Origin: a virus
Length of the DNA: 64,000 bases
Virus record (IMG/VR): IMGVR_UViG_3300028840_004908
Reading direction: 5' to 3' (one strand)
The position numbers and the translations under genes are program-made. Below, in pieces: positions 46,584-46,850 of the stretch. The stretch's first letter is position 1. The number at the start of each line of letters is the position of its first letter. A model generated the notes under the pieces. It saw only the letters and a list, made by a program, of their open reading frames with translations, did no database searches and had not been told where the DNA came from.

Positions 46584-46850
46584 TCAACTTGCTTGCTTGC
46601 TTGCTTGCTTGCTTGCTTGCTTGCTTGCTTGCTTTGACCGCTGATGTTTGCCCCGCATCTGAAACGCTGCATCAACGCCGTCAAACGTGATGTCAATATC
46701 ATCGTTCCCACATTCCTCTTTGATAGCTTTGTCGATTTCCTGTTTGAACTTCTTCAAATCGAACCCGTCTGGAATGCAAACAACGCTTGAGCTGGATAAA
46801 CTATTGTTGACAAAAATGCTCCTGATCTTAATTTCCTTCCCTTTGCACAA
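46584..46850 (-). CDS. hypothetical protein with C-terminal (KQAS)n repeat encoded by a tetranucleotide SSR. TTG start.
   Basis: ...FQMRGKHQRSKQASKQASKQASKQAS. Probable TTG start with GAGGT SD. Class II promoter upstream. Confidence 0.4.
   Translation of the reverse strand: MCKGKEIKIRSIFVNNSLSSSSVVCIPDGFDLKKFKQEIDKAIKEECGNDDIDITFDGVDAAFQMRGKHQRSKQASKQASKQASKQAS
46588..46635. repeat. (CTTG)n / (CAAG)n tetranucleotide microsatellite, about 11.5 units
   Basis: CTTGCTTGCTTG...CTTGCTTT read directly from the sequence. It sits in the last codons of gene 46584..46850, 6 nt from the next gene start. Confidence 0.85.

Follow-up and report, generated by a model that had tools for sequence, protein, structure and literature searches.

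The window analysed here is a stretch of viral DNA of 64,000 nucleotides. From 30.6 to 64 kb, its minus strand carries a tandem array of approximately 90 paralogous small ORFs of 50-120 amino acids. Their products share an N-terminal motif, M-L-S-K-x-[IV]-C-x-x-C, and a C-terminal motif, C-P-[YF]-x-L-E-H-L-[MLV]-E-x-Q. The family had no match in Pfam or PHROG, and its AlphaFold model is of low confidence (pLDDT 61). Only 11 members of the family were found in a profile search of 5.8 billion proteins, and the inspected contigs come mostly from one JGI sediment-metagenome series, with two other samples in addition. A degenerate DNA motif of the family was found on three IMG/VR contigs, which are distant relatives, and matched no GTDB genome. 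An expansion to approximately 90 paralogues is highly unusual for a phage-like genome, and the array is of greater interest than the microsatellite that lies within it and is described below.

The genes of the array are tightly packed. In 16 cases a family gene overlaps its predecessor by 11 nt (ATGYTGAGTAA), and in 10 cases by 7 nt (ATGTTGA), for example at 44583, 46131, and 51629. In both types, the stop lies within the conserved codons of the MLSK start. The conserved M-E codons (ATGGAR) of the C-terminal motif may double as Shine-Dalgarno (SD)-like GGAG or GGAA for the next gene. At 51818-52144 on the minus strand, two CxxC...C-D-Y-H-L-E-H-L units are fused in tandem within one 108-aa ORF. 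Genes of other kinds are embedded in the array, including an Anti-Pycsar Apyc1-like gene with a metallo-beta-lactamase fold (PF23023; 52561-53439, minus strand), two NUDIX genes, and an HNH endonuclease with HTH domains (55957-56541, 42890-43324, and 49908-50762). The presence of these genes suggests that the region serves in anti-defence or host takeover.

The left half of the window codes, on the minus strand, for a MoxR/CobS-like AAA+ ATPase (12715-13944), a CobT-like VWA protein (16849-18924), a family X (Pol beta-like) DNA polymerase (PolX; 21500-22393), and an ATP-dependent DNA ligase (23465-24367). The GC content is 47-54% in this half versus approximately 41% in the array. There are no tRNAs and no Rfam matches in the window. 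Public contigs, the longest of 338 kb, also contain the sequence of the window. Judged from these contigs, from its gene content, and from its distant relatives in IMG/VR, the element is probably a very large phage, although the window has no structural gene.

The promoter-like element and the tract-bearing ORF

A promoter-like element lies at 46870..46937 on the minus strand, with the sequence TTGTATAATTAACCA and TATAAT at 46880-46885. It was recognized by blastn self-matches, a pattern search, alignment, and the ORFs downstream of it. The element is approximately 65 nt long and is present in four copies in the window, whereas none was expected in the pattern search. All four are on the minus strand (19648-19713, 35896-35964, 40706-40768, and 46870-46937) and follow the layout ...GCAAAAATCAAG...TTGTATAATTAACCA.... 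They head different first genes: one for a 137-aa protein whose N-terminus is hydrophobic, a 67-aa ORF that has a strong SD, a member of the array family, and an 88-aa ORF. The exact nonamer TTGTATAAT is also found in three related loci (L040, L041, and L064). We read the element at 46870..46937 as a putative promoter, and on this reading the 88-aa ORF would be the first cistron of a transcription unit. At the 40.7-kb copy, a 133-kb contig of sample 3300017960 (L045), which has 3 SNPs in 13 kb relative to the window, has a terminal 107 nt (1-107) that is inverted relative to window positions 40562-40668, exactly at the element. This inversion may have arisen in assembly, at a repeat, or may be a genuine rearrangement carried by a sister strain.

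The 88-aa ORF occupies 46584..46850 on the minus strand, with a TTG start at 46850 and a TGA stop at 46584-46586. The ORF list, codon usage, and a homologue support it. Its product ends in ...QRSKQASKQASKQASKQAS, in which the last 17 residues, S(KQAS)4, are encoded by a tetranucleotide microsatellite. This agrees with the preliminary description of the locus, where the repeat was said to encode a (KQAS)n C-terminal tail. In the non-repeat part, the codon-usage log-likelihood ratio per codon is +0.29 in frame versus about -0.25 off frame. Public pipelines annotate the ORF as an 88-aa gene on public contigs, and the exact product is also present on one public contig of the ~338-kb class.

The ORF is outside the paralogous family of the array. 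Neither its product nor that of the next gene downstream matched Pfam, and the only PHROG match covers the repeat tail alone (residues 70-87). A k-mer protein search with the core of the ORF gave no match, and the exact 88-aa sequence was absent from the cluster protein collection that was searched. In a protein-guided scan of IMG/VR, only low-complexity matches to the KQAS tail were found, and blastn of the locus against 50,697 GenBank phages returned nothing. The AlphaFold model is of low confidence here as well (pLDDT 59).

The sole homologue is P0014, a 120-aa protein encoded within the array of a related phage (loci L065-L069). It was found with an E-value of 1e-11 in an exhaustive phmmer/HMMER search of 1.84 billion representative proteins. 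In BLASTP, residues 7-64 of the window protein align with residues 1-54 of P0014 at 60% identity. The corresponding DNA, 46659..46832 on the minus strand, is approximately 80% identical at the nucleotide level, and this homologous part was delimited by phmmer, BLASTP, DNA alignment, tblastn, and Nei-Gojobori analysis. Over the 54 aligned codons, the Nei-Gojobori dN/dS is 0.15 at a dS of approximately 1.2, which indicates that the N-terminal part has evolved as a protein. The two genes differ at their starts. The ATG of P0014 matches an ATT at 46830-46832 of the window, the GAGGAG Shine-Dalgarno sequence of the relative is degraded and gapped in the window, and no promoter-like element was seen upstream of the relative's copy in the DNA alignment.

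They also differ at their ends. Homology stops at 46659 (...AFQ), about 30 nt before the microsatellite. Beyond this point, the relative runs on for approximately 65 codons of ordinary coding sequence with no repeat, while the window has eight unrelated codons (MRGKHQRS) and then the tract. The C-terminal half of P0014 was not found by tblastn anywhere in the 64-kb window. A weak tblastn match (E=0.05) placed P0014 at 55632-55808; it overlaps an unrelated membrane ORF and was dismissed as a chance match. The window ORF would thus be the N-terminal half of a P0014-type gene that has lost its ATG and its C-terminal half. Since there is a single homologue, we can only infer the direction of the change, truncation here rather than extension there.

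The microsatellite and the seam around it

The microsatellite lies at 46588..46634, with the minus strand as the coding strand. It was characterized with Tandem Repeats Finder, a shuffle-controlled pattern search, regular expressions, and a census of simple sequence repeats (SSRs). The plus strand reads (CTTG)11 followed by CTT, which makes 47 perfect bases, with the regular expression placing (CTTG)11 at 46588-46631. All supported genes of this region lie on the minus strand, where the sequence of the tract is AAG(CAAG)11, or (CAAG)11.75, 100% pure over its 47 nt. Tandem Repeats Finder reports a period of 4, 11.8 copies, and 100% matches. The 16-mer of the repeat, allowing at most one mismatch, was found nine times in overlapping registers versus 0.02 expected from dinucleotide-preserving shuffles of the window. 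No other microsatellite in the 64 kb exceeds three units, and the runners-up have exactly three.

The preliminary description placed the repeat at 46588-46635. The repeat is real and perfect, but position 46635 is a mismatch, so its length is 47 nt and not 48. Two distances in that description also need correction. The run ends 1 nt, rather than 6 nt, before the TGA (46586-46584), and 10 nt, rather than 13 nt, before the ATG of the next gene, whose product begins MLSK, at 46577. The figure of 6 nt is the length of the spacer (AAGAAA) between the stop and this ATG. In the direction of transcription, approximately 245 nt separate the TATAAT of the promoter-like element from the beginning of the tract. 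The minus strand shows no promoter-like hexamers on either side of the tract, so the arrangement is not that of SSR phase variation of the promoter-spacer or upstream-element type. Plus-strand ORFs that cross the tract (LACL repeats) were rejected, being antisense to supported genes.

A perfect inverted copy of the upstream edge of the tract, the 13-nt sequence AAAGCAAGCAAGC, was found by a repeat-pair search at 46238-46250 on the plus strand, against 46623-46635. The two copies are 372 nt apart and bracket the downstream gene. By a rough estimate, such a period-4 12-mer would be expected by chance approximately 0.03 times per window. The inverted copy is not used in the RNA fold predicted for this region.

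The number of units was 11 in the window and in all six other assemblies that span the tract, which come from several samples. The assemblies of the same element with exactly 11 units include Ga0180436 (L039), Ga0180434 = ERZ27256773 (L044, L058, L073, and L074), Ga0180433 (L057 and L072), ERZ27256796 (L049, L056, and L071), and ERZ27256791 (L043 and L070). The flanks of the tract are 100% identical across them or differ by 1 SNP in 14.4 kb. Two k=31 Logan contigs run into the tract from opposite sides and break inside it, as an assembler with this k would be expected to do on a 47-nt sequence of period 4. The tract is not an assembly artefact, as it is the same in six other spanning assemblies and is entered by Logan contigs on both sides.

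The constant number of 11 is consistent with stability but says little about the rate of slippage, as every assembly is a consensus drawn from one near-clonal population (0-1 SNP per 14-20 kb). The diverged arrays of relatives, approximately 91 kb in all, contain neither an SSR of at least five units (GAG x4 is the longest) nor any counterpart of the tract. The preliminary description held that its reading would be refuted by a repeat length invariant across deep population sequencing and related isolates. The findings go part of this way, with 11 units in six further assemblies and a homologous gene in the relative that has no repeat.

The gene downstream of the tract (46305..46577, minus strand) encodes a 90-aa protein of the CxxC...CP[YF]xLEHL family with an Arg-rich tail, as determined from the ORF list, the family motif, and a blastn self-comparison. 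Its product is 65% identical to that of the gene at 43716-43985. The two share a block of 197 nt (46388-46584) with approximately 80% nucleotide identity to the block at 43.8-44.0 kb. On the basis of these identities, the downstream gene is judged to be a recent duplicate of 43716-43985. A protein-guided scan of IMG/VR with the downstream gene gave no match. Public gene calls use other starts for the 90-aa gene and for a 64-aa neighbour.

Similarity to the paralogous block begins at 46584, 3 nt past the tract. Between this point and the end of the P0014 homology at 46659 lie 74 nt (46585..46658, minus strand) that have no counterpart in the homologue or in the paralogous block. They consist of the MRGKHQRS codons, the 47-nt tract, and the first bases beyond it. 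Thus, 47 of the 74 novel nucleotides belong to the tract, at a seam with the truncated gene on one side and the duplicated block on the other. It takes exactly the place of the segment that bears an SD-like AGGA in the paralogue. The downstream gene has no such AGGA and may therefore depend strongly on translational coupling, which would amplify any effect of the junction geometry.

Frames and junction geometry after unit changes

The locus was rebuilt in silico with 6 to 17 units, and the tails and stop positions were read off. The preliminary description pointed out that a 4-nt unit is not a multiple of three and that a slip of one unit would cause a frameshift and displace the stop with respect to the MLSK start. 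The simulation agrees. However, all three frames through the tract give a KQAS-repeat peptide, because 4-nt units have the same 12-nt period in any frame. With the native 11 units, the tail ends in ...KQAS, the first base of the stop is at -9 from the A of the ATG, and a +6-nt spacer separates the stop from the start. The second frame ends in ...KQVERKC with its stop at +4, which is a 7-nt overlap. The third ends in ...KLKENVE with its stop at +8, which is an 11-nt overlap. The TGA at +4 and the TAA at +8 lie inside ATG-TTG-AGT-AAA, the family's conserved start, which opens the downstream gene and closes the two other frames. Since the tract lies at the very 3' end of the ORF and every frame is closed within 1-7 codons, the protein would never be truncated, extended, or fused. 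A slip would alter only 1-7 terminal residues and exchange one coupling-compatible geometry for another, given that the peptide is the same and the stops fall at -9, +4, or +8.

All of these geometries resemble those already in use in the array. At native junctions, the stop is at +8 in 16 cases, at +4 in 10, and at -2 to -13 in 9. In all three frames, the stop and the start overlap or lie within approximately 10 nt of each other, as in coupled pairs. Gene pairs translated by termination-reinitiation have their stop and start within a few nucleotides or overlapping (PMC10666635, PMC6728339). The window junction is like such pairs in its close stop and start and in its SD-poor downstream gene, and the entire array consists of junctions of this kind. 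It differs in that coupled pairs typically overlap by 4 or 1 nt, whereas the overlaps in the window array are 7 or 11 nt, set by the ATG-YTG-AGT-AAA start, and in that an SSR lies immediately upstream. Reinitiation falls gradually with distance, with a loss of 5-70% at +2 nt and of 40-60% at 13-14 nt (PMC10666635). At 22-23 nt in H. volcanii the loss is near total, and in E. coli it is 80-100% when the distance is 38 nt (PMC10666635). Given this gradual fall, any effect of slippage on the downstream genes would be modest tuning.

A role of the tract in RNA structure was considered and rejected. Against shuffled versions, the 671-nt transcript region shows no gain in folding stability (z=+0.84), and both the minimum free energy (MFE) fold and the centroid fold leave the tract unpaired.

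Origin and possible roles of the tract

The reading that we favour, with a probability of about 0.62, is that the tract is a young microsatellite born of slippage at a recombination seam, where it is tolerated because frameshifts there are nearly harmless, and that it is not a dedicated contingency switch. Replication slippage would have generated it in novel sequence between a 3'-truncated gene and its recently duplicated neighbour. Gain and loss of units by slipped-strand mispairing probably occur. Such changes would alter only the length of the tail, its last 1-7 residues, and the stop/start geometry. As all three geometries are compatible with reinitiation, the consequence for the downstream coupled genes would be modest tuning at most, with no on/off effect, and the tract may persist because of its harmless position. 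Besides the missing AGGA of the downstream gene, the single homologue, and the near-clonal origin of the assemblies, two further points weigh against this neutral account. An uninterrupted, perfect 47-nt tract is also expected under selection for mutability. In addition, the gene may still function and its tail may matter, given its low dN/dS and coding-like codon usage. If the favoured account is right, the locus is a dated snapshot of gene-array remodelling, with a promoter-like element that the relative lacks, a truncation, a duplication, and an SSR at the seam. It would also be a caution that a non-triplet SSR in an ORF beside a coupled start is not automatically a switch.

It is unlikely, although conceivable, that the tract acts as a three-state rheostat. 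Slippage would then cycle the stop of the first cistron between the +6 spacer and the 7- and 11-nt overlaps, and in this way tune the downstream chain heritably and reversibly. That chain would comprise approximately 20 tightly overlapping, largely SD-poor family genes from 46577 to about 40.8 kb. The position of the 88-aa ORF, directly after the promoter-like element as first cistron, speaks for such tuning, as do the SD-like motif that is missing from the downstream gene and present as AGGA in its paralogue, and the prevalence in the array of 7- and 11-nt overlaps, which implies coupling. A perfect tract of 11 units is also in the mutable range of characterized systems; De Bolle et al., in 2000, reportedly found tetranucleotide tracts of such length and purity to be mutable. 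In E. coli, small shifts between stop and start alter reinitiation by up to 70% (PMC10666635). However, all three geometries are native-like, so that large differences are not expected, and no length variant occurs in the six spanning assemblies. Neither this junction nor any other in the 91 kb of related arrays has an SSR, and the junction sequence beside a truncated gene suggests accident rather than design.

Known SSRs that tune expression offer a partial parallel. In N. meningitidis, a TAAA tract upstream of nadA tunes its expression (PMC2791445). These tuning SSRs share with the present locus the idea that repeat number modulates expression with no loss of frame. They act on promoter or operator spacing or in the 5' UTR, whereas an effect in the window would act via the stop/start geometry of coupling. 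The (AGAT)n tract in the 5' UTR of uspA2 and the heptamer repeats of hmw likewise tune expression rather than switch it. We know of no SSR that acts through the stop/start geometry of translational coupling. If tuning by this route were real, it would constitute a new mechanistic class of phase variation, based on coupling geometry, and in a phage. A bolder form, in which the junction is a three-position coupling "gearbox" that sets the ribosome flux into approximately 20 zinc-finger-like genes of a ~338-kb phage, is improbable.

We are equally doubtful that the length of the tract, and not its frame, is what matters, with the RNA serving as an unstructured A/C-rich leader or standby site in place of the lost SD-like motif. 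CA-rich multimers enhance bacterial translation, the tract is unpaired in both predicted folds, and it replaces exactly the AGGA segment of the paralogue. Being inside a translated ORF, however, it is traversed by ribosomes anyway. There is no conservation in the relatives and nothing that points to a constrained length.

Very little speaks for classic ON/OFF phase variation, in which a change of one unit would frameshift the gene or uncouple the downstream gene and turn the product off. The architecture had been called a classic one for phase variation in the preliminary description, and a non-triplet unit in a long, perfect tract within an ORF beside a coupled start does bring such systems to mind. 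Their requirement is that a unit change puts required coding sequence out of frame, with early stops in two of the three frames, and the tract does not behave in this way. The frame simulation gave the same peptide in all frames with no truncation, extension, or fusion, every junction geometry is compatible with coupling, no variation is seen among the assemblies, and the layout is the reverse of that at most comparator loci (see below). The designation as classic architecture is therefore not upheld.

The contingency loci of Haemophilus influenzae and Neisseria, such as (GCAA)n in lex2A, (AGTC)n in mod, and (CAAT)n in lic1A, illustrate the difference. The window tract resembles them as a perfect tetranucleotide repeat in an ORF, of a length in the mutable range, and the GCAA unit of lex2A is a rotation of CAAG. 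Their tracts are near the 5' end, so that two of three frames end early and the product is abolished, whereas the window tract forms the last 17 codons and the product remains nearly identical. No length polymorphism was observed among the assemblies of the window locus, all from one near-clonal population. An origin as an artefact of assembly or sequencing, finally, is next to impossible, since six longer-k assemblies from several samples span the tract identically even though the Logan contigs break within it.

Closer in sequence are loci found by scanning IMG/VR with the KQAS tail. The scan returned 38 viral loci (L001-L038), 37 of which have a perfect (CAAG)n tract, with n up to 39 and mostly between 11 and 25. 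Examples are the tracts at 5008-5079 of L009, 5001-5056 of L010, and 5007-5098 of L011. These loci share with the window the repeat unit and its location on viral or prophage DNA. In most of them, however, the tract lies 0-50 nt after an upstream stop, with one frame open for approximately 560-1125 nt and two frames closed within approximately 30 nt. The tract is thus mostly at the 5' end of a long ORF. This is the classic ON/OFF arrangement; the window locus is its mirror image and has no methyltransferase.

Among four comparator downstream ORFs searched against Pfam, two matched DNA methyltransferases (D12 N6-adenine MTase and N6_N4_Mtase) and two had no match. Megablast matched neither of two comparator methyltransferase loci to any named GenBank phage. 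The comparator loci appear to be phase-variable methyltransferases borne by phages. Several further comparator ORFs have methyltransferase-like motifs, and one resembles a type I specificity subunit, as judged by eye only.
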